DNA of 64,000 bases, from assembly GCA_963848295.1 (NCBI GenBank), contig CAWKDB010000002.1, positions 224,001 through 288,000 of the forward strand, written 5' to 3'. Shown in pieces: positions 8,189-26,417 of this stretch. The position numbers and the translations under genes are program-made. Each line of letters starts with the position of its first letter. The first letter of the stretch is position 1. This DNA is from an uncultured delta proteobacterium (lineage in GTDB: Bacteria; Myxococcota_A; Polyangia; Haliangiales; Haliangiaceae). The notes under the pieces were generated by a model. The model worked only from the letters and a program-made list of their open reading frames with translations. It was not told the origin of the DNA and made no database searches.

Positions 8189-9375
8189 TCAGGCGCCGGT
8201 CTTCGCACGCGCGGCGGTGGCGCGCGTCGGAATCGGCACGCGCTCGACGACATCGATCCCGAAGCCCTCGAGGCCTGGGATCTTGCGATCGCTCCACATC
8301 ATCAGCCGGATCTTCTTGCAGCCGAGATCCGCGAGCACCTGCGCGCCCAGCCCGAAGTCGCGCAGCGCTTCGCTCGACGCCGCGCGCGACTCCTTCGCGA
8401 TGTCAGTGAAGCTCGGCCGCACGACCTCGCGCTGGAGCACGAGCCGATCGAACGAATTCGCGAGCCGCATCCGGCCGCGATTGACGACGTAGAGCAACAC
8501 GCCGAGCCCGGCGGCATCGATCGCCTCGAGCGCGGCGGTGAGATCGGGCCGGAGCGAGAACGGATCGCCGAGCGGATCCATCGCCGCGACCCGCACGAGC
8601 ACGGTCTGGCCCGCGGCCGATGCCGCCGCGACATCGCCGCGCACGAGCGCGAGGTACTCGGTGTCTTCGACCTCGGTGTCGTAGTAATGCGCGACGAACG
8701 GCTCGCCCGGCGCCGAGCCCTCCCGGCCGCAGCGTGCCGGTGCCGCGGCAGCGCACGATTCGCTCGTGCTGCAGGCGATACGCGATCATGTCGGCGACCG
8801 ACAGCACCATCACGTGGTGGCGTTGGCCGAACGCTTCGAGCTCCGGCATTCGGGCCATCTCGCCGTCCTCGCGCATGATCTCGCAGATCACGCCGGCGGG
8901 CTTGCAGCCCCGCCATGCGCGCGAGGTCGACCGAGCCTTCGGTCTGGCCGGTGCGGACGAGCACGCCGCCCTTGCGCGCGCGCAGCGGGAACACGTGGCC
9001 GGGAGACACGATCTTGTGCGGCCCGGTGTCGTCGGCGATCGCGGCGCGGATCGTCGTCGCGCGATCGCGAGCCGAGATGCCCGTCGACACGCCGTGCCGC
9101 GCTTCGATCGACACCGTGAACGCGGTGCCGAGCGAGGCTTGGTTGTCGCGCACCATCATCGGCAGCTCGAGCTTGTCGATCATCGCGTCGTCCATCGCGA
9201 GGCAGATCAGGCCCCGCGCGTGGGTCGCCATGAAGTTGATGTGCTCGGGCGTGACGAGCTCGGCGGCGAACACGAGATCGCCTTCGTTCTCGCGATCTTC
9301 GTCGTCGACGAGGATCACCATCTTGCCGGCGCGGATCTCGTCGAGGGCACGCGCGACGCGTTCGAGGGCGGTCAT
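8189..9375 (-). CDS. ribB: DHBP synthase fused to a degenerate GTP cyclohydrolase II domain (RibBX-type); apparent frameshifts near 8900 and 8700
   Basis: [27 protein letters not shown] and [13 protein letters not shown]. The C-domain has [15 protein letters not shown] but no Zn-binding Cys. Confidence 0.9.
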
Positions 9376-10029
9376 GACTGGCCTCCAGCAACTAGTTTTT
9401 CGACGTGCTTCGCGAGGATGTCGGTCTCGAGGTTGACGCGGTCGCCGATCGCGAGCGCGCCGAGCGTCGTGTGATCGCGGGTGTGCGGGATGATCGCGAC
9501 CGAGAACGTCTCGCGATCGACCGCGTTGACGGTGAGCGACACGCCGGCGATCGCGATCGAGCCCTTCTCGACGATGTGGCGGAGCAGCGCCGCCGGCGCG
9601 CGCACGCCGAGCACGAGGTTCGCGCCGAGATCGCGGCGCACCGCGAGCTCGCCGGTGCCGTCGATGTGGCCGGTCACCCAGTGACCGCCGAGCCGATCGC
9701 CGAGCCGCAGCGCGCGCTCGAGGTTGAGCTTTCCGCCGACGCGGGCGTGGCCGAGCGTCGTGCAGCGCGAGCGTCTCGGCGCCGGCGAGCACGGTGTAGC
9801 TGTCACGGGCTATTGAACCGCGCCGCCCTTCGGCGCCGCTGCCGGCCGGGGGCAAGCCCCGACCGTCGATCGCCGTGACCGTGAGGCACGCGCCGTCGTG
9901 GCAGATCGATTCGCCGATCGCGAGGTCGGCGAGCGCGAACGCCGCCGGCCGGATCGCGAGCACGAGCGCGTCGCTACGGCGATCCGCGCGCGCGATCGTG
10001 CCGACGTCAGCGACGAGCCCGGTGAACAT
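9372..10029 (-). CDS. ribE: Riboflavin synthase (alpha chain); frameshift near 9765; carries a 19-codon repeat insertion
   Basis: [56 protein letters not shown] and [10 protein letters not shown]. Confidence 0.93.
9811..9870 (-). repeat. Intragenic two-hairpin repeat, copy 1 (in ribE)
   Basis: Minus strand ATCGACGGTCGGGGCTTGCCCCCGGCCGGCAGCGGCGCCGAAGGGCGGCGCGGTTCAATA. Ungapped hand alignment: 49/60 identical to 25050-25109 and 43/60 to 18546-18605. Confidence 0.85.
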
Positions 10030-10040
10030 CTGCTGCGGGT

Positions 10041-11120
10041 CTACCACGCGGCTCGCGCGAGGTGCAGGCGCAGGTCCGGGCCCTGCTGTACCGGTGCCGA
10101 GGCCCACGCAAAGCCGTGCGCGGCGGCGAGCTTGGCGACGCCCTCGCCGCCGACCCAGCTCGGCGCGGCGCCGCCGACGATGATCGGCGCGACGTAGAGG
10201 TAGAGCTCGTCCGCGAGCTTGGCGGCGAGCACCGCGGCGTGCAGCTCGCCCCCACCTTCGACCAGCACCGACATCACGCCGGCCGCGCCGAGCTTCTTCG
10301 CGAGCTTGCCGAGGTGAACGCGGCCGTCTTTCGACGCGGGGAGCCGCCAGACCTCCGCGCCGGCGGCGACCAGGCCGCGCTCTGCCCTCGCCGACGCGGT
10401 CGCGGTGGTCGCGATGATCGTGCGCGGGCCCGTGCCGCGCGGCAGCACCAGCGAGCGATGCGGCGTGCGCAGCGCGCTGTCGACGACGATGCGGATCGGA
10501 TCGCGTCCGTTCGGCACGCGCGCGGTCAGCCGCGGATTATCGGCGACCACGGTGCCGATGCCGACCATCACCGCGTCGGCGCGATCGCGCAACGCGTGGC
10601 CGTCGCGGCGCGCGACCTCGCCCGTGATCCACTTCGATTCGCCGGCGACCGTCGCGATCTTGCCATCGAGCGTGATCGCCGCTTTCAACGTGAACTGCGG
10701 CCGGCCCAGCTTTGCGAGCGTGAAGAACGGCCGATTCGCGGCGTCGCACTCGGCGACGAGCGCGCGGTCGACCGCGATCCCGGCGGCGCGCACCGCCGCG
10801 ATCCCGCCGCCGTGCGCCGCGATCGGATCGGCGCTGCCGACGACCACGCGCGAGACACCCGAGGCGATCACTGCAGGCGCACACGGCGGCGTGCGCCCGT
10901 GGTGGGTGCACGGCTCGAGCGTGACGTACAGCGTGCCGCCTTCCGCGCGCTCGGCCTCGACCTGGTCGAGTGCGAGCCGTTCGGCGTGCGGCGAGCCGGC
11001 GCGCTCGTGCGCCGCCTCCGCGATCACCTTGCCGCGCACGTCGACGATCACGCAGCCGACGATCGGGTTCGGCGCGGTCCGCCCGGCGAACCGCTCCGCG
11101 AGCTCGAGAGCGCGCGCCAT
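10041..11120 (-). CDS. ribD: Riboflavin biosynthesis deaminase/reductase RibD
   Basis: [35 protein letters not shown] and VEGG. Confidence 0.95.
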
Positions 11121-11150
11121 CAGGGTGATGTCGCGATCGGCGCGCAGCGG

Positions 11151-11652
11151 CTACTCTCCCGCAGAGACTGGCGCGGCGACTGGCGGATGCTCGTCGGTCG
11201 CTTCTTCGCGCATCGCGTCGAGCTCCTTCGAGAACACGTCGAGGTCCGCGAAGTCGCGATAGATCGACGCGAACCGGACGTACGCGACCTGATCGATCGT
11301 GCGCAGCTTTGGCAAGACGCGCTCGCCGACATCGCGCGCCGCGATCTCCGCGACCCCGAGCTCGCCGATCTCGCGCTCGACATCGAGCGCGAGCGTCTCG
11401 ACTTGCTCCGGCGTGACCCGGCGCTTCGCGACCGCGGCGCGAATGCCGTGCACGATCTTGTTGCGGTCGAACGGTTCGCGCCGGCCGTCGTTCTTGATGA
11501 CGAGCGGCATCGACATCTTCGATCCGCTCGTACGTCGTGTAGCGGCGCGTGCAGCCCTCGCACTCGCGCCGGCGGCGGATCTCGTTGCCGTCTTTCGACA
11601 CCCGAGTCTCGATGACCTTGTCTTCGTAGGCGGCACAGAACGGGCAACGCAT
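11151..11652 (-). CDS. nrdR: Transcriptional repressor NrdR; frameshift near 11515
   Basis: MRCPFC...[18 protein letters not shown], then an ATP-cone [15 protein letters not shown]...[15 protein letters not shown] in the adjacent frame. Confidence 0.93.
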
Positions 11653-12092
11653 TACACGTGGTCCAAGCTGCCGAGCTGATCGACTCGGCGTTGATGACGT
11701 CCACCCGCAAACGTCGTCGAGCGGAACGTCGCGAGCGCATGCTGCGCCACGCCGCCGCCGACGACCCGTGCCCCGAATGCGATGACGTTCGCATCGTTAT
11801 GCTCGCGCGCCATCTGCGCGGTGAACGCATCGTGCACGACCGCGGCGCGCACGCCCGCGATCTTGTTCGCGGCGATCGAGATGCCGATCCCGGTGCCGCA
11901 CACGATCAACCCGAGCGTGCCGGGCTCGCCCGCGACCTTGCGACCGACCGCCGCGCCGAACGTCGGATAGTCGACCGAGTCCTCGGTCAGCGTCCCGAGA
12001 TCCTCGACCGAGTCGCCGAGCTCGCGCAGGCCCGCCACGAGCTCGCGCTTGAGCCCGAGCCCCGCGTGATCCGAGCCGGCGTACCACTTCAT
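11652..12092 (-). CDS. rpiB: Ribose-5-phosphate isomerase B
   Basis: [32 protein letters not shown] and GGRHQRRV. Confidence 0.95.
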
Positions 12093-12097
12093 CGCGC

Positions 12098-13348
<1,251 letters not shown>

Positions 13349-13443
13349 GGAGCTCCTTGTCGATCCAACCGGGCCCAGGTCCCGGCCAGCGATCCAGTCG
13401 CGGGACTAGACCCCGAAAATCGCTTCGAGGCGACCCTCCGCGC

Positions 13444-13686
13444 CTACTTCGCGTGGGTCTTGATGTAGTTGACCGCGTCCTTCACCGTCTTGATCTGCTC
13501 GGTGTCTTCCTCGGGGATCGTGATCTTGAACTCTTGCTCGAACGCGAGCACGAGCTCGACCACGGCCAGCGAGTCGGCCTTGAGGTCATCGATGAACGAC
13601 GCCTCGGGCTTCAGCTGCTCGGGGGAGACCTCGAGCTGATTGCAGATGATTTCCTTGACCTTGGCTTCGATCTCGTCAGGCGACAT
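13444..13686 (-). CDS. acpP: Acyl carrier protein
   Basis: [21 protein letters not shown] phosphopantetheine motif; 80 aa, acidic. Confidence 0.96.
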
Positions 13687-13732
13687 GACACTTCCTCGAT
13701 GAGGGATGCGCGTTCTTAGTCTAGAACCGGAA

Positions 13733-14521
13733 TTACATCAACATCCCGCCGTTGACCCTGAGCACCTGCCCGGTGATGTAGGCAGCCTCCGGTCCGGCTA
13801 GGAAAGCCACGGTATCGGCAATGTCATCGGCCTTGCCGATGCGACCGAGCGGGATCTGTTCCATCAGCTTGGCCCGCGCGGCCTCGGGCAGATGGTCGGC
13901 GGTCATCGCGGTGTCGATATAGCCGGGCGCGACCGCGTTACAGGTCACGCCGCGCGACGCCAGCTCGCGAGCGGTCGACATCGTCAGGCCGATGATGCCG
14001 GCCTTGGACGCCGAGTACGCGGCCTGGCCGCCGTTGCCCATCTCGCCGACGACCGACGACAGGTTGATGATCCGGCCCGCTTCTTTCGCGCGCAGCAGCA
14101 GCGACGCCGCGGCCCGCGTGGTGTGGAACGCGCCGTTGAGGTTGACGTTGATCGTGCGCTGCCACTGATCGTCGGTGAACCGCATCAGCAGGCCGTTGAC
14201 CGCGATGCCGGCGTTGTTGACCAGGATGTCGAGCTGCTTGTGCTCGCTGCCGATCGCCTTGATCGCGTCGGTCACGCTCGCGCTGTTCGCGACGTCGAAT
14301 CCGGAGATCGCGCCTTGGCCGCCCGCGGCTTCGACCTCGGCCGCGACCGTGCGCGCGTCGGCTTCACGTGACGCCGGTGCGCCCGCGGCGTCGGGCAAGT
14401 AGTTCACGATCACCTTCGCGCCGCGCCGGCCGAGCGCGACGGCGATCGCGCGCCCGATGCCCTGCGATGCGCCGGTGACGAGCGCGACCTTTCCCGCGAG
14501 TGCCTTGTCCGTGATCGCCAT
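13733..14521 (-). CDS. fabG: 3-oxoacyl-ACP reductase
   Basis: [23 protein letters not shown] and [12 protein letters not shown]. Start MAITDK. Confidence 0.94.
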
Positions 14522-14529
14522 GTGCTCTC

Positions 14530-15454
14530 CTAAGCCTTGAACGCTTCCACTTCGTGCGGCTCGCCGATCGTCGTCGTCTCGATCTGGTTCGCGATGCGCT
14601 TGACGAGGCCCTTCAACGTCGACCCAGCGCCGAGCTCGTAGGCGCGCACGACGCCGAGCTTGCCGAGCGTCTGCACGCTCTCTTCCCAGCGCACCGGCGC
14701 GGTGACTTGCTGGACGAGCAGCTGGCGGATCGCGGCCGGGTCGCGCGTCGGCTCGGCCGTGACGTTCGCGACGACCGGCACGCTCGGCTGCGCGATCGCG
14801 ATGTCCGCGAGCGCCAGCGGCGAGTCGATCCGCGGCCGGCTGCATCAGCGACGAGTGGAATGGCGCGGACACCGCGAGCTTCTTCGCGATCTTCGCGCCG
14901 GCGGTCTTCGCCTCGGCGATCGCGCGATCGATCGCCGCGCTGTGCCCGGAGATCACGATCTGACCCGCGCCGTTCAGGTTCGCCGGCTCGACCGGCTCGC
15001 CCGGCGCCGACGCCTTCGCGCATACCGCGCGCACCGCCGCGAGCTCGAGACCGATGAGTGCCGCCATGCCGCCCGCGCCAACCGGCACGGCGTCCTGCAT
15101 GAACGTGCCGCGCAGGTGAGTGAGCCGAACCGCATCGCCGAGCGACAGCGCGCCGGCGGCGACCAGCGCGCTCCACTCGCCGAGCGAATGACCGGCGGCG
15201 ACCTCGAACGTCAGGCCGCGCTCGCGGAGCACGCGGAACACCGCGATCGACGTGGCCAGGATCGCCGGCTGCGCGTGCTTCGTCAGCACGAGGTCGTCCT
15301 CGGGTCCGTCGAAGCACAGCTTCGAGATCGAGAACCCGAGCGCCGAATCGGCCTCGTCGTACGTCTGGCGCGCGAGCGGGAACGTCAGCGCGAGGTCGCG
15401 GCCCATGCCGACCCGCTGCGAGCCCTGCCCTGGAAACAGCAACGCCGTGTGCAT
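14530..15454 (-). CDS. fabD: Malonyl-CoA:ACP transacylase; frameshift near 14815
   Basis: [27 protein letters not shown] and PVRWEESV. Confidence 0.93.
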
Positions 15455-15474
15455 CGCGGGGGGTTTTCGCACAA

Positions 15475-15566
15475 GGGGACGGAGGAATCTCTGTCAACCG
15501 GCCCGAACCCGCAACTCTGCGTATCTGCGAACCTTTGCCGGGGACGGAGGAATCTTTGTCAACCGG
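15475..15566. repeat. Two 27-bp direct repeats separated by 38 bp
   Basis: GGGGACGGAGGAATCT(C/T)TGTCAACCGG at 15475-15501 and 15540-15566, one mismatch. Confidence 0.9.
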
Positions 15567-17766: not shown

Positions 17767-18155
17767 AGACCACCGTGATCAGCCTCGTAGCCGCGGCGGT
17801 GGCGCTCGCCGCCGCGATCACCACCGAAGAGGTTCGGCTTCAGCGTGCCGACGCTCGGATCGAGACGCTCGTCGCGGAGCGCACCGAGTATCGGATCCTG
17901 TGCTCGTCGATCCGGTACACCGCCCGCACCGCTTCGCAGAGACTCAACGCATCTGCGTTCGCGCAGCTCGACATGATCGGGATCTTCGCCGGGCTATGCG
18001 GGGCCGATCGCGAGCGCGCTCACCGAGCCGCCGAGCGCGCCGGCGACTGCGCCGCGATCAGCCACGACTGGGCGTGCGCTCGGCAAGCCGCCACGGAACT
18101 AGTCGACATGATGCCGGAGGACTATCCCGAGCTCGACCCGGCGTTCGACCACTAG
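17763..18155 (+). CDS. Hypothetical small exported or membrane-anchored protein with 4 Cys
   Basis: MKTTVISLVAAAVALAAA signal-like start; ATGA overlap with the upstream gene. Confidence 0.7.
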   Translation: MKTTVISLVAAAVALAAAITTEEVRLQRADARIETLVAERTEYRILCSSIRYTARTASQRLNASAFAQLDMIGIFAGLCGADRERAHRAAERAGDCAAISHDWACARQAATELVDMMPEDYPELDPAFDH

Positions 18156-19201
18156 CCCAACGCAGCGGCCAGCTGCTCGGTGAGCCCGCGCTCCGCGAAG
18201 CTCGCCGCCGAGCGGATCGCACTCGCGATCGCGGTGGCGTCGCTCCGGCCATGGGCGATCAGCACGGGCTTGGTCACGCCCGCGAGCAGCGCGCCGCCGA
18301 CCTCGGTGTAGTCGATCCGCTTCGCGAGGCCGCGCAGCGCCGGTGCGACGAGCGCCGCGCCGAGGCGGGCCCGGGGCGTGCGCTCGAGCTCTTGGCGGAC
18401 GAGGCCGAACAAGCCCTCGGCGATGCCCTCGCACGTCTTCAACACGACGTTGCCGGTAAAGCCATCGGTCGCGACGACATCGACCACGCCGCGAAACAGG
18501 TCGCTGCCCTCGACGTAGCCGACGTACTGGAAGGCGCCGGTTAGCGATCGAACCGCGCCGTCCTGCGGCGGCGCTGCTCGCCGGTCGTTCGCCCCGGCCA
18601 GCGCCGCGAGCAGTGCGTGGGCCTCGCGCGTGACCGCGGTGCCTTTGCCGGGCTCGCCGCCGTTCGACAACAAGCCGACCCGCGGGCGCGAATGCCCGTG
18701 GACGACGCGATCGTAGGCCGCGGCGAGCACGCCGAACTGCGCGAGCATCGCCGGCTTCGGCTCGACGTTCGCGCCGGCATCGCACAACACGAGCGGGCCC
18801 GACGGCGTCGGCAGCACGGTCACGATCGCGGGTCGCTCGACGCCGGGCAGGCGACCGAGCACGAACAGCGCGGTCGCGAGCATCGCCCCGCTGTTGCCGG
18901 CGCCGATCATCGCGTCGCCGCGCCCGGCCGCCAGCTCGGCGACCGCGATCCGCATCGACGAGTCGGGCTTGGCGCGGAACGCTTGCCCGGGGTGGTCGGT
19001 CATCGTGACGACTTGGCTCGCCGGCACGATCGCGAGCCGCGCACGATCCTCAGCGCTCGCGCCGGCGCGCACGAGCTCGGCTTCGATCCGCGCCGCGTCG
19101 CCGACGAGCGAAACGTCGATGCCGCCACCCGCGCGCAGCGCACCTAGCACCTCGGGCGCGGGTGCCCGATCACTTCCCATCGCGTCGACGACGACGCGCA
19201 T
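18152..19201 (-). CDS. plsX: Phosphate acyltransferase PlsX; carries a repeat insertion
   Basis: VVVDAMGSDRAP, SSMR, GNSGA, GVERPA, DAGANVE, DGFTGNVVLKTCEG and AHGRS. Confidence 0.95.
   Translation of the reverse strand: MRVVVDAMGSDRAPAPEVLGALRAGGGIDVSLVGDAARIEAELVRAGASAEDRARLAIVPASQVVTMTDHPGQAFRAKPDSSMRIAVAELAAGRGDAMIGAGNSGAMLATALFVLGRLPGVERPAIVTVLPTPSGPLVLCDAGANVEPKPAMLAQFGVLAAAYDRVVHGHSRPRVGLLSNGGEPGKGTAVTREAHALLAALAGANDRRAAPPQDGAVRSLTGAFQYVGYVEGSDLFRGVVDVVATDGFTGNVVLKTCEGIAEGLFGLVRQELERTPRARLGAALVAPALRGLAKRIDYTEVGGALLAGVTKPVLIAHGRSDATAIASAIRSAASFAERGLTEQLAAALG
18546..18605 (-). repeat. Intragenic two-hairpin repeat, copy 2 (in plsX)
   Basis: Ungapped match to 9811-9870 at 43/60 (35/45 in the core). 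Read one frame shifted, giving ALAGANDRRAAPPQDGAVRS. Confidence 0.75.
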
Positions 19202-23041: not shown

Positions 23042-23823
23042 CGACGCGGCATCGCGGCGGAGAGCTGTTCGACCAGCGCGCGAAGCCCAGGCACGCCGGC
23101 GGTCGCGAGCCGATCGACGAGCGCCGAGCCGACGACGACGCCATCCGCAACTCGCGCGAACCGCGCGGCATCGGCCGCGGTGCTAATGCCGAAGCCGATC
23201 GCGACGGGCGCTCCGGCGGCGAGTCGGATCTGCGCGAGTCGCACCGGATCGACCGCGGCGGCCGCGCGCGCGCCGGTCACGCCGGTCATCGAGATGTAGT
23301 AGACGAACGGCGCCGTGAAGTCCGAGAGGCGGGCGATGCGTTCGGGCGTCGACGTCGGCGCGACGAGCGGCACGACGCCGACCCCGCGCGCGGCGAGCGG
23401 GTTCGCGAGCTCGGCGAGCTCGTCAATCGGCAGGTCGACGGTCAGCACCGCGTCGATGCCGGATGCCGCCGCGCGTTCGGCGAACGCCGCGACGCCGAGC
23501 GCGAAGATCGGGTTGTAGTAGCCGAACAAGACGATCGCGACGCCCTCGCCTCGCGCGCGCAGCTCGGCGACCGCAGCGAGCGCACCGGCCAACGTGCCAC
23601 CCGCGGCGAGCGCACGCTCCATCGCGGCCTGGATCGACGGGCCGTCCGCCGACGGATCGGAGAATGGCACACCGATCTCGATGACATCGGCGCCCGCTCG
23701 CGCCGCGGCGACGACCGCCTCGATCGACGTCTGCGGATCGGGGTCGCCGAACGTGAGGTACGCGACGAGCGCGGCGCGATGCTCGGTGGCGGCGCGCTCG
23801 AACGCCGCGCGCAAGCGGTTCAC
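23038..23823 (-). CDS. trpA: Tryptophan synthase alpha chain
   Basis: [33 protein letters not shown] and GFGI. Confidence 0.96.
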
Positions 23824-25136
23824 GCGCCCCCTTGCTTCGCCGCGACCGTGGTCACCGCATCGATCGGCGCGCCAGCCCGCTTCGCCGCTATCGTCGTCAT
23901 GTCTTTATCGCCGCGGCCGGACAGCCCGACGATCACGACGCCGCCGTTGACCGCGCGCGCGACCTCCCCGAGCGCCGCGACTGCATGCGCGGTCTCGAGC
24001 GCGCAGATGATACCTTCGCTGCGCGCGAGGCGTTCGAGCGCCGCGAGCGCTTCGGCGTCGGTGCGCGCGATGTACGTGACCGCGCCAGTGTCCTTCCAAT
24101 GTGCGTGCTCGGGCCCGACGCCGGGATAGTCGAGGCCGGCGCTGATCGAGTGCGCGTGCGCGATCTGACCATCGGGAGTCTGCAACACGTAGCTCTTGCT
24201 GCCGTGGAGCACGCCGACCGCGCCAGCGCCGAGCGTCGCGGCGTGGCGCCCGGTCGCGATGCCGTCGCCCGCGGCCTCGACGCCGAAGCAGCGGACCTCG
24301 CCGATCATCGGCGCGAACAGCCCCGCCGCATTGGAGCCACCGCCGACGCACGCGACGAGCGCGGACGGCAACGCTCCGGTCGCGGCGATCACCTGCGCGC
24401 GCGCTTCGCGGCCGATCACCGACTGCAGATCGCGCACCAGCCATGGATACGGGTGTGGGCCGGCGACCGAGCCGATCAGGTAGAACGTGTCGCCGACGTT
24501 GGTCACCCAATCGCGCAGCGCCTCGTTCATCGCGTCCTTGAGCGTGCGCGTGCCGCTGTGCACCGCGTGTACCCTCGCGCCGAGCAGCCTCATGCGCTCG
24601 ACGTTGAGCGCCTGGCGCACGACATCTTCGGCGCCCATGTAGATCTCGCACGGCAAGCCGAACAGCGCGGCGACCGTCGCGGTGGCGACGCCGTGTTGAC
24701 CCGCGCCGGTCTCGGCGATCAGGCGGCGCTTGCCCATCCGGCGCGCGAGCACCGCCTGGCCGATGCAGTTGTTGATCTTGTGCGCGCCGGTGTGATTGAG
24801 ATCCTCGCGCTTGAGGTACACGTCGGCACCGACCTCGGCCGATAGCCGGCGCGCGCGATACAGCGGCGATGGCCGGCCCACGTAGTCGACGAGCAGCTGA
24901 TCGACCTCGCCCCAGAACCCAACATCCGCCCGTGCCGCTCGCCACGCGGCTTCGAGCTCGCCGATCGCCGGCATCAACGTCTCGGCGACGTATTGTCCGC
25001 CGTAAGGACCGAACCGGCCCTGTACCGGCTCGGGCAGCCGTACGATTTGCTCGACGGTCGGGGCTGGCCCCCGGCCGTCAGCGCCGCCGGATGGCGGTCC
25101 AGTTCTATCGGCGGTCGCCACGCCCGTGCGTACCAC
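23820..25136 (-). CDS. trpB: Tryptophan synthase beta chain; repeat copy in the N-terminal extension
   Basis: [39 protein letters not shown] and [15 protein letters not shown]. Confidence 0.96.
25050..25109 (+). repeat. Intragenic two-hairpin repeat, copy 3 (antisense within the trpB 5' end)
   Basis: CTCGACGGTCGGGGCTGGCCCCCGGCCGTCAGCGCCGCCGGATGGCGGTCCAGTTCTATC, 49/60 identical to the minus-strand reading of 9811-9870. Confidence 0.85.
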
Positions 25137-25139
25137 GGC

Positions 25140-26417
25140 TCACGGGTCGCCCGGGCTGCCGAAGAAGCCGAGGTAAGCCTCGAGGACTTCGTCATGTTTG
25201 CCGACTGAAAAGACGTGTTGGGGCACCGACCAGCGATCGAAGCTCTCGACGTACACCCGGTCGCCGTCGACGATCGCGTGCGCGGTGAGTTGCATCGTGC
25301 CGGCGAACGGCGCGACCTCGCCCGCGGTCTCGCGATACGCGAGCTCGAACGGCAGCTCGATCGCGCCGCTCGCTCCTTCTGGTAACGCCGGCGCGCGGAG
25401 GCCGATCTCACCCTCGACGACGATCTCGCGCCCGCCGTCCAGCGCGATCGTGAGTCGCGCCTCGCCGCGCTCCTCGCCGCCGATCGCGCGCTCGGGGATC
25501 ACGGTGAACATCGCGCCGAATTGTTTGCGGTCAGCACCCGGACGTGTCTCGTTCACGTAGAGCGAGAACCAACGCCGGCGATCTAGATCGGACGGCAACC
25601 GGGCTCGGTCGTGCTCGACCGCCAACTCCGCGAGCGCCGGCCCTGGCTCGCCGGCGAGCACGCGCCGAGCCGCGACGAGCGTCGCGGCGTCGAACGCGCT
25701 GACGACCTCGAGCGGAAACCGCGAAGGGTCGGCGTGCAGGTTCCACAGCTGCGGCTCGCCTTGCCGTCCGACCACGGCGTCGATCCACGCCGGGGCCGAC
25801 GTGACGTCTCCCTCGCGCAGGTCTCCAGGCCGAAATCTGCCGCCCGATTCCTCGGTCGGCGCGCGTCCCGCGATCACGGTGAGCTCGCGGTCGGCCTTCA
25901 GCCGCACGTGGAGCACGCGGATGCCACCGTAGTCATCGTGCGGATCCGACGGTCGTACCGTGAGCTCCTCGATCGCCAGCTCGCGATAGAGTCCGTCGTA
26001 GACGATCGTGATCCCGCGTGGGATCCGGATCTGATACTTCGCAGCGATGTCGGCCCGGATCGCATCAGCGAGGGGTGCGACCGCGGAGTCGAATGCGGGC
26101 TGCTCGCCCGGATCGCGAATCAAACCTCCGAACCCGGTACCGAGCAGATGCACGCGCGCGCCAGGCTCGGTCGCGACCTCGTAGACTGCCTCGACGAGCT
26201 CGATGTGGTTGAAGAACGCGCGAAAGTGGTGAACGTACGGTCCGACGCTGACCACGCGGTAGTAGTTGCGGAGCTCGCGAAGCTGACCGTACTCGGCGTG
26301 TGGTGGCGGCGGCGGTGGCTCGGGCGCGACCGCGGGTGGCGGCACCGCGGGCGCGACTGGGGGCGGGCGGCCTGGCGCGGTACAACTCAGGACCACGAGG
26401 ATCAGAGCGCGTCTCAT
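25140..26417 (-). CDS. Hypothetical lipoprotein (425 aa) inside the trp operon
   Basis: MRRALILVVLSC lipobox-like start and a Pro-rich linker. Confidence 0.75.
   Translation of the reverse strand: MRRALILVVLSCTAPGRPPPVAPAVPPPAVAPEPPPPPPHAEYGQLRELRNYYRVVSVGPYVHHFRAFFNHIELVEAVYEVATEPGARVHLLGTGFGGLIRDPGEQPAFDSAVAPLADAIRADIAAKYQIRIPRGITIVYDGLYRELAIEELTVRPSDPHDDYGGIRVLHVRLKADRELTVIAGRAPTEESGGRFRPGDLREGDVTSAPAWIDAVVGRQGEPQLWNLHADPSRFPLEVVSAFDAATLVAARRVLAGEPGPALAELAVEHDRARLPSDLDRRRWFSLYVNETRPGADRKQFGAMFTVIPERAIGGEERGEARLTIALDGGREIVVEGEIGLRAPALPEGASGAIELPFELAYRETAGEVAPFAGTMQLTAHAIVDGDRVYVESFDRWSVPQHVFSVGKHDEVLEAYLGFFGSPGDP

Follow-up and report, generated by a model that had tools for sequence, protein, structure and literature searches.

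The riboflavin synthase gene (ribE) in the 64-kb stretch of DNA analysed here (hereafter the window) encodes an extra peptide, and the first-pass annotation traced this peptide to a short two-hairpin repeat that it also placed inside two other housekeeping genes, plsX and trpB. The locus raises the question of what such a repeat is, how it came to lie in frame within core genes, and how it moves; for coding repeats that resemble the Rickettsia palindromic elements (RPEs), both origin and movement are an open question. The host of the window is uncultured, and our analysis compares its genome (hereafter G000; 7.78 Mb, 85% complete) with those of its relatives.

All three copies lie where the annotation put them, at 9811-9870 (-) in ribE, 25050-25109 (+) in trpB, and 18546-18605 (-) in plsX, the latter two with ungapped identities to the ribE copy of 49/60 and 43/60, respectively, and the ribE copy is free of stops in its three sense frames, as had been reported. 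The interval 9811-9870 corresponds to positions 1-60 of our family model; with the preferred cut, the 57-bp element takes up model positions 6-62 (9809..9865, -). It consists of hairpin 1 (9843..9865, -), hairpin 2 (9820..9839, -), and an 11-nt 3' tail (9809..9819, -) in which the terminal (A)TCGA has decayed, and on its 5' side, across an inferred cut, lies a TCGA target core within the host codons ATC GAC (9866..9869, -). The ribE gene itself spans 9372..10029 (-), with its end inferred from the length of the open reading frame (ORF) in the sister genome G117. The insert adds 19 aa after CLTVTAI. That this peptide is extra was borne out by its absence from 27/27 orthologue loci, a set that leaves out two loci from unpublished genomes, and by a gap of exactly 19 columns in the RibE orthologue alignment; G062, G066, G076, and G086 lack the insert, and G117 carries it within an intact 218-aa frame. 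A one-base slip near 9764, approximately 45 nt downstream of the insert, interrupts the ribE frame in G000, is absent in G117, and is probably a sequencing error. One-base slips also occur in the ribBA, nrdR-like, and fabD-like ORFs (8189-15497) of the G000 assembly, and because the ribE slip is absent in G117, we regard slips in these housekeeping frames as probable sequencing errors. In an AlphaFold2 model of the G117 RibE (mean pLDDT 84), residues 56-74 are of low confidence and fall between strands 47-54 and 78-83; this one predicted model tentatively places the insert in a loop between two strands.

The plsX copy (18544..18605, -; model positions 1-62) is older and decayed, and it lies in frame within its host gene (18152..19201, -), to which it adds 19 aa. 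It is absent from 19/19 motif-matched orthologues, with six further fetched loci unmatched, and the alignment of PlsX to a solved structure breaks at the insert. The trpB copy (25050..25111, +) is antisense to its gene (23820..25121, -). All three genes therefore do contain the repeat, as the annotation had it, but in trpB it sits at the N-terminus, after codon 4, rather than in an internal loop. The GTG start at 25121 lies upstream of this insert and is orthologous to the M-(S/A)-T-V start of relatives. The insert is absent in four relatives, including G117, in which the protein starts with M-(S/A)-T-V or similar, and this copy is therefore younger than the split between G000 and G117. A 425-aa ORF (25140-26417, -) is located directly upstream of trpB in G000, and in G117 and other relatives the gene upstream of trpB runs straight into it.

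The prediction of many more copies genome-wide held. An iterated nhmmer profile seeded with the three window copies (E<=0.1) recovered 188 copies at 162 loci in G000, compared with 0 matches when the reversed genome was searched in the same way. A covariance model of 50 copies scored the window copies at 81, 70, and 52 bits, while the rest of the window yielded nothing above 22 bits; together with the reversed-genome control, this excludes chance. Among 87 single copies in G000 there is no identical pair and the mean identity is 73%, so that no very recent burst is seen in this genome.

In the family model, which has 62 positions, (T)CGA at positions 2-5 is repeated at positions 59-62, and the unit is therefore 57 bp. 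Hairpin 1 pairs positions 6-14 with 20-28 around a 5-nt loop and is variable in sequence, with compensatory changes in eight of its nine pairs. Hairpin 2 pairs positions 32-39 with 44-51 around a G-N-A-K loop, its core pairs being almost invariant, and the 11-nt 3' tail that follows has a second (A)TCGA at its end in most copies. Both hairpins proposed in the annotation are backed by covariation: 91.8% of cells are paired and both sides change in 11 of 17 pairs (counts that are inflated by kinship among copies), with none of 500 shuffles reaching as high and slid controls dropping to 34-56%. Judged by the folding energy of single copies, the trpB copy alone beats its shuffles (z = -3.2, as against -0.75 for ribE and -0.73 for plsX). 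The outer ATCGAC/GTTCRAT stem that completed the proposed fold found no support, because positions 1-2 come from the host. The pairing also carries a strand signal, as G-T oppositions exceed A-C oppositions by 116:44 across 161 copies on the strand read ATCGAC; by context the ratio is 15:5 in sense copies, 10:1 in non-coding copies, and a weak 25:18 in antisense copies. Hairpin 1 contains tandem G-A oppositions in a separate subfamily. In eight copies that G000 shares with its sister, the stems diverge as fast as the flanks (24/272 vs 78/936 sites), which suggests that the element needs its fold in order to move, and not to persist at a site; 11 of 20 pair changes in these copies break pairing in one genome, and divergence in the tail is low (3/88 sites).

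Of 12 loci with more than one copy, 10 hold head-to-tail arrays with a period of 57 and up to five units, and the remaining two hold pairs 108 bp apart. Orthologous loci hold single copies or head-to-tail arrays of the same period, and among metagenome loci the period is 57 in 22 of 24 close pairs. At one locus G000 has four units where a relative has one, and units within an array have locus-specific variants in common, for which reasons the arrays most likely grow in place. Variant periods were observed as well, namely 58 bp in an array of G008 (L076) and 54-bp units in G082, G062, and G066, with the loci concerned being L076, L070, L071, and C30 and C133 of G066.

Where these copies lie was called with a dicodon Viterbi model, which replaced a less sensitive test (61/162 loci; random 1007/2000). 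This provided the tally of intragenic position, frame, and length that the annotation had proposed: 112 of the 162 loci (69%) are in frame inside genes, 31 are non-coding, 10 lie at gene edges, and 9 are other. As 340 of 400 random TCGA sites are also in frame, genes are only mildly avoided. In-frame loci include both orientations (45 sense and 67 antisense), and 86 of the 112 have the nTC|GAn phase, matching random coding TCGA sites (266/340), so that the frame preference follows from the target and selection on the peptide is not needed. Because TCGA is abundant and mostly in the nTC|GAn phase, 57 is a multiple of three, and the frames are mostly open, most insertions that survive keep the reading frame and lengthen the protein by 19 aa. 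Of nine length variants not divisible by three, seven are in non-coding DNA, compared with 31/162 loci overall; of nine whose length remains divisible by three, eight are found within coding sequence or between two coding stretches of the same strand. This avoidance of ORFs by frame-breaking variants indirectly implies that the element is translated, and most likely it adds a predicted 19-aa loop to its host proteins. A Pfam family could be named for 26 of 30 chosen hosts, among them Era, ArgRS, RecG, an EF-G paralogue, a UvrD-like helicase, two CysG domains, and an Lhr helicase. The era, argS, trpB, and ribE genes each have one match in the 85%-complete G000, and each of these bears an insert; in argS, five tandem units in one open frame account for 95 extra residues. 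We regard the peptide as a probable passenger that its hosts tolerate, not as a function under selection. Many of the copies at L355-L394 that were not called in frame seem to sit at the 5' ends of genes or in the gaps between divergent genes, a placement unlike that of typical REPs, and some of them may be N-terminal in-frame inserts, as in trpB.

Comparison with close relatives provided empty sites at the DNA level. We combined 43 loci from close relatives with 40 regions of G117; identity of the flanks to G000 was about 80-97%, and the set comprised 90 distinct loci, 70 of them with orthologous flanks, 16 without, and 4 with short flanks. At 31 of the 70 alignable loci G000 lacks exactly the 57 bp, at 11 it is empty but with small indels, 26 loci are filled or remnant, and 2 are other. 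The empty-site alleles that the annotation had anticipated thus occur both in proteins (RibE, PlsX, and TrpB) and in DNA. The sites show that the unit is gained, or precisely lost, as a whole 57 bp at (T)CGA(Y), in either orientation, with the direction polarised for ribE and trpB only, and the 31 exact empty sites have the consensus T21 C27 G22 A27 Y25. Two genomes carry the element at one and the same position of an acyltransferase gene but in opposite orientations (L066:468-529 in G018 and L072:1501-1562 in G006), and these represent independent insertions; the same site is empty in G000, where a copy is found elsewhere in that gene (L029). Where the two ends of a copy differ, the empty site agrees with the left end up to and including position 1, shows no preference at position 2 (4:4), agrees with the left end 9:2 at positions 3-5 (a small count of 11 informative cells), divides 3:5 at position 6, and agrees with the right end from position 7 onward. 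The cut falls within TCGAY, most likely after the A. The base 3' of this inferred cut is itself biased, being Y in 25/31 empty sites. Variants at positions 5 and 62 are uncorrelated (3/13 vs 11/74, p=0.43), so that there is no copy-by-copy duplication of the target; positions 6 and 63 both track subfamily (p=0.0004 and p=0.002, respectively) and are weakly correlated with each other (p=0.03). The consensus has no terminal inverted repeat beyond the TCGA palindrome. GATC and TCGA are the top two over-represented tetramers in the genome, at about 4.5-fold over the mononucleotide expectation (counted on C10). On the same contig, TCGATC, GATCGA, and CGATCG reach 10-11-fold, a HIP1-like excess outside cyanobacteria.

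The family appears to have a narrow range. At E<=1e-6, matches were found in 14/31 genomes of the same genus (the 31 include the unpublished G010, which is negative) and in 0/29 genomes from other genera of the same family and order. With 39 candidates scored per genome, the best E was below 1e-12 in 22/90 same-genus genomes, and the best outside the genus was 3e-7. A GTDB pattern scan returned at least 80 loci, and the matches listed were all labelled Kofleriaceae or Deltaproteobacteria apart from one Acidobacteriota contig. Strong matches therefore appear, as far as these genome searches reach, to be confined to one Kofleriaceae genus. There were 0 matches in viral contigs and none in phages, plasmids gave one weak partial match that we take as chance, and no Rfam family was hit at its gathering score. 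A plsX tree, with 17/26 genomes recovered, was unresolved and is uninformative on horizontal spread.

That the repeat was not recognised as a described family agrees with the literature we searched, in which no description of it was found, most subscription papers being beyond the reach of the search; the main text of PMC3733652, taken without its supplements, makes no mention of Haliangium, Myxococc-, Sorangium, or Anaeromyxobacter. The family is apparently undescribed, and the class of behaviour, that of RPE-like coding repeats, is already known. As described for the Rickettsia RPEs, hairpin repeats occur here in frame in unrelated genes and have no cognate transposase shown (PMC10969869, PMC3733652), and empty sites are present in orthologues. 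RPEs are approximately 150 bp long, their host is an intracellular alphaproteobacterium with a reduced genome, and close to half of the copies of three families are reported to lie in ORFs (PMC10969869), whereas the element here is 57 bp long, resides in a 7.8-Mb Kofleriaceae genome, is in frame at 69% of loci in both orientations, and has a defined TCGA target and head-to-tail arrays. The RPE family proper is set apart by its description, given the 57-bp length and strong matches in one Kofleriaceae genus only. Family size, empty sites, and in-frame residence nonetheless support the annotation in calling this a non-autonomous element that resembles the RPEs.

Cyanobacterial SDRs are 21-27 nt long. 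SDR5 is likewise a very small repeat that sits precisely in an over-represented palindrome of its host, HIP1, within one lineage, and SDRs are described as restricted to Nostocaceae (PMC5861425, PMC4390886); the element here differs in its 57 nt, two hairpins, and TCGA target. Lineage and description separate it from the SDR sequence family, since its host belongs to the Kofleriaceae. Like the present element, the GTAG and CGTC REPs are short hairpins that show compensatory changes and GT pairs and number tens to hundreds of copies (PMC3733652, PMC8266576), and some REPs are intragenic, with CGTC REPs also being without a dedicated transposase (PMC3733652). Here, however, the copies are mostly intragenic singletons and head-to-tail arrays rather than head-head dimers. 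CGTC REPs are defined by an unpaired CGTC tag, AT at stem positions 1-2, a CCA tail, and head-head dimers (PMC3733652); in our element CGTC-like letters belong to the target or the stem, the stem does not begin with AT, and a CCA tail is missing. A GTAG REP or RAYT REPtron was rejected because there is no GTAG tag beside the hairpin and no REPtron among the Y1 loci searched. Subclasses of Y1 without REPs exist according to PMC6006769, whose accessible part makes no mention of these bacteria. A MITE of the DDE type was set aside as there are neither terminal inverted repeats of 15-30 bp nor a target-site duplication. Integron attC sites (59-be) form one long hairpin with RYYYAAC/GTTRRRY ends and a G|TT crossover, whereas here there are two hairpins and the empty-site boundary falls at TCGA rather than GTT.

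We are highly confident that the 57-nt element is mobile and that it inserts scarlessly and in frame. How it does so can be stated with less assurance. Our best overall explanation, to which we give an even chance, is a non-autonomous mini-element structured as a single strand, moved by HUH chemistry, and tolerated as a protein loop; for the trans-acting HUH chemistry taken by itself, which is argued by analogy, the chance falls just short of even. The element would fold and move as a single strand, as in IS91 and IS200/605, the intermediate would most likely be a small ssDNA circle, and a trans-acting HUH enzyme (Y1/Y2-type) would cut and paste this circle, leaving the target motif 5' of the element and the same motif at its end, as in IS91. 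IS91 elements have no target-site duplication, subterminal palindromes, and target and terminal cleavage tetranucleotides that resemble each other (PMC13181058), and the ends of IS200/605 elements are strand-specific ssDNA hairpins (PMC8266576). The element here shares with both groups the absence of target-site duplication, a short target that is probably retained on one flank and recurs at the element's end, the subterminal hairpins, and the strand specificity (PMC13181058, PMC8266576), and the left-hand retention of the target in 9/11 informative cells, the covarying hairpins, and the G-T excess on one strand are all consistent with HUH transfer. As a sign of descent from these elements, the small 9:2 count is suggestive only. 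The element differs from both groups in being 57 nt long. Several findings weigh against the HUH reading. No transposase gene or autonomous partner was found, and the wobble bias is weak in antisense copies. No bias of orientation relative to GC skew was seen (the skew is weak and was judged by eye), although lagging-strand movement of the IS200/605 kind predicts a replichore bias. There is also a bias 3' of the cut, at a base that tracks subfamily, which fits recombination at short core homology better.

The search for a mobilising enzyme also counts against HUH chemistry. G000 has nine Y1, two IS91-type, zero IS110, and four reverse transcriptase (RT) matches as candidates. Across 64 Y1/IS91 loci in G000 and 10 relatives (incomplete metagenome-assembled genomes), none is flanked by the repeat, the best score (21 bits) being background, and no autonomous IS91 or IS200/605 element there shares its ends; the IS91-type end motifs that can be read by eye in G000 are unlike the repeat. 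The repeat-flanked RAYT, IS200-605, or IS110 transposase that the annotation had suggested was accordingly not found, with 0/62 Y1 loci in 11 genomes (all matches in six, 30/63 in five) being a RAYT flanked by the repeat. We also looked at the genes next to 40 loci, 39 of which had not been called in frame; none of the 115 neighbouring ORFs belongs to a recombinase or HUH family, and the sole transposase trace in these neighbourhoods is a DDE fragment about 1 kb away. Across public loci there is no recurring enzyme neighbour, and clustering gave shared host genes only. At L438 a Y1 gene is located about 200 bp from a repeat that lies in frame inside a different gene, at L236 a Y1 fragment is about 1.5 kb away, and the copy at L470:404-465 is inside a transposase-like ORF that, by its motif, may be of the IS1182 family. 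The RAYT-like Y1 HUH genes of G000 (C10:3657361, C2:329455, C2:1374063, C10:1438888, C10:4550355, C10:261551, and C10:3039981) form a multicopy family of similar genes that have a common upstream leader of a few hundred bases and, in three copies, a common short motif past the stop; the family resembles a set of mobile units in its own right. In G082 there are 32 Y1 matches, and C10:51970-54550 of G000 contains adjacent remnants of two divergent IS91-type (Y2) transposases.

The strongest rival, which we consider somewhat unlikely, is recombination through short core homology, in which a circle with a TCGAY junction would recombine with a chromosomal TCGAY, driven by a tyrosine recombinase, by an IS110-like enzyme, or by host repair of nicks in TCGA/GATC palindromes. 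Bias on both flanks of the core, the 3' base that tracks subfamily, the cut position blurred across positions 2-6, and the 4.5-fold excess of GATC and TCGA would all suit it, and directed cutting at HIP1 has been suggested for SDR5 (PMC4390886). Against this, a specificity of just 4-5 nt is low, recombination of dsDNA has no need of strand-specific hairpins, and the searches above gave neither an IS110 match in the 85%-complete G000 nor a recombinase beside the 40 loci.

An RNA intermediate followed by reverse transcription, a route reportedly proposed for cyanobacterial SDR elements and for msDNA-like repeats of Nannocystis, is quite unlikely here. The G-T wobble excess suits RNA as well, G000 does have its four RT matches, and the titles of two Nannocystis papers cited in PMC6868368 offer msDNA-like dispersed repeats as a precedent. 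However, no copy lies near eight RT loci (best 19.6 bits, which is background, in incomplete metagenome-assembled genomes), and the copy-rich G117 and G066 have no RT match at 90% and 89% completeness, respectively. The repeat likewise shows no Rfam match, poly-A tail, 5' truncation series, or target-site duplication.

Two further readings are highly improbable. A classical MITE, with 53 bp and a 4-bp CGAY duplication made by a DDE transposase, would explain CGA(Y) at both ends and the weak link between positions 6 and 63, but that link is explained by subfamily, the lack of correlation between positions 5 and 62 largely refutes the MITE reading, and that reading accounts neither for the missing terminal inverted repeats nor for head-to-tail arrays of period 57. 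A signal selected by the host (for RNA processing, pausing, or as a nucleoid site), or an element spliced from mRNA, would fit the conserved structure, the residence in core genes, and the slowly diverging tail, but G000 has an empty site at roughly half, or more, of the sister loci, both orientations occur, stems diverge like flanks with broken pairs, and frame-breaking variants avoid ORFs as though translated.

Beyond the HUH reading, we also consider an insertion system not described before, distinct from RAYT, IS91, IS110, and RT, in which a structured single strand of 57 nt would be the complete cargo, writing 19 codons scarlessly at a target of 4-5 bases read partly by the foot of its own hairpin. 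This is unlikely on present evidence, and if true it would be a minimal natural mutagen for in-frame loop insertion that uses the HIP1-like TCGA excess of its host. The mechanism is testable in principle, because the family combines filled and empty loci in sisters of about 90% identity with a unit of exact length, a defined target, and arrays whose copy number varies. The family extends the RPE-like behaviour beyond reduced endosymbionts to a soil bacterium with a large genome, where it occurs at high frequency, and its copies in Era, ArgRS, RibE, and TrpB provide a natural map of insertion tolerance in core proteins.
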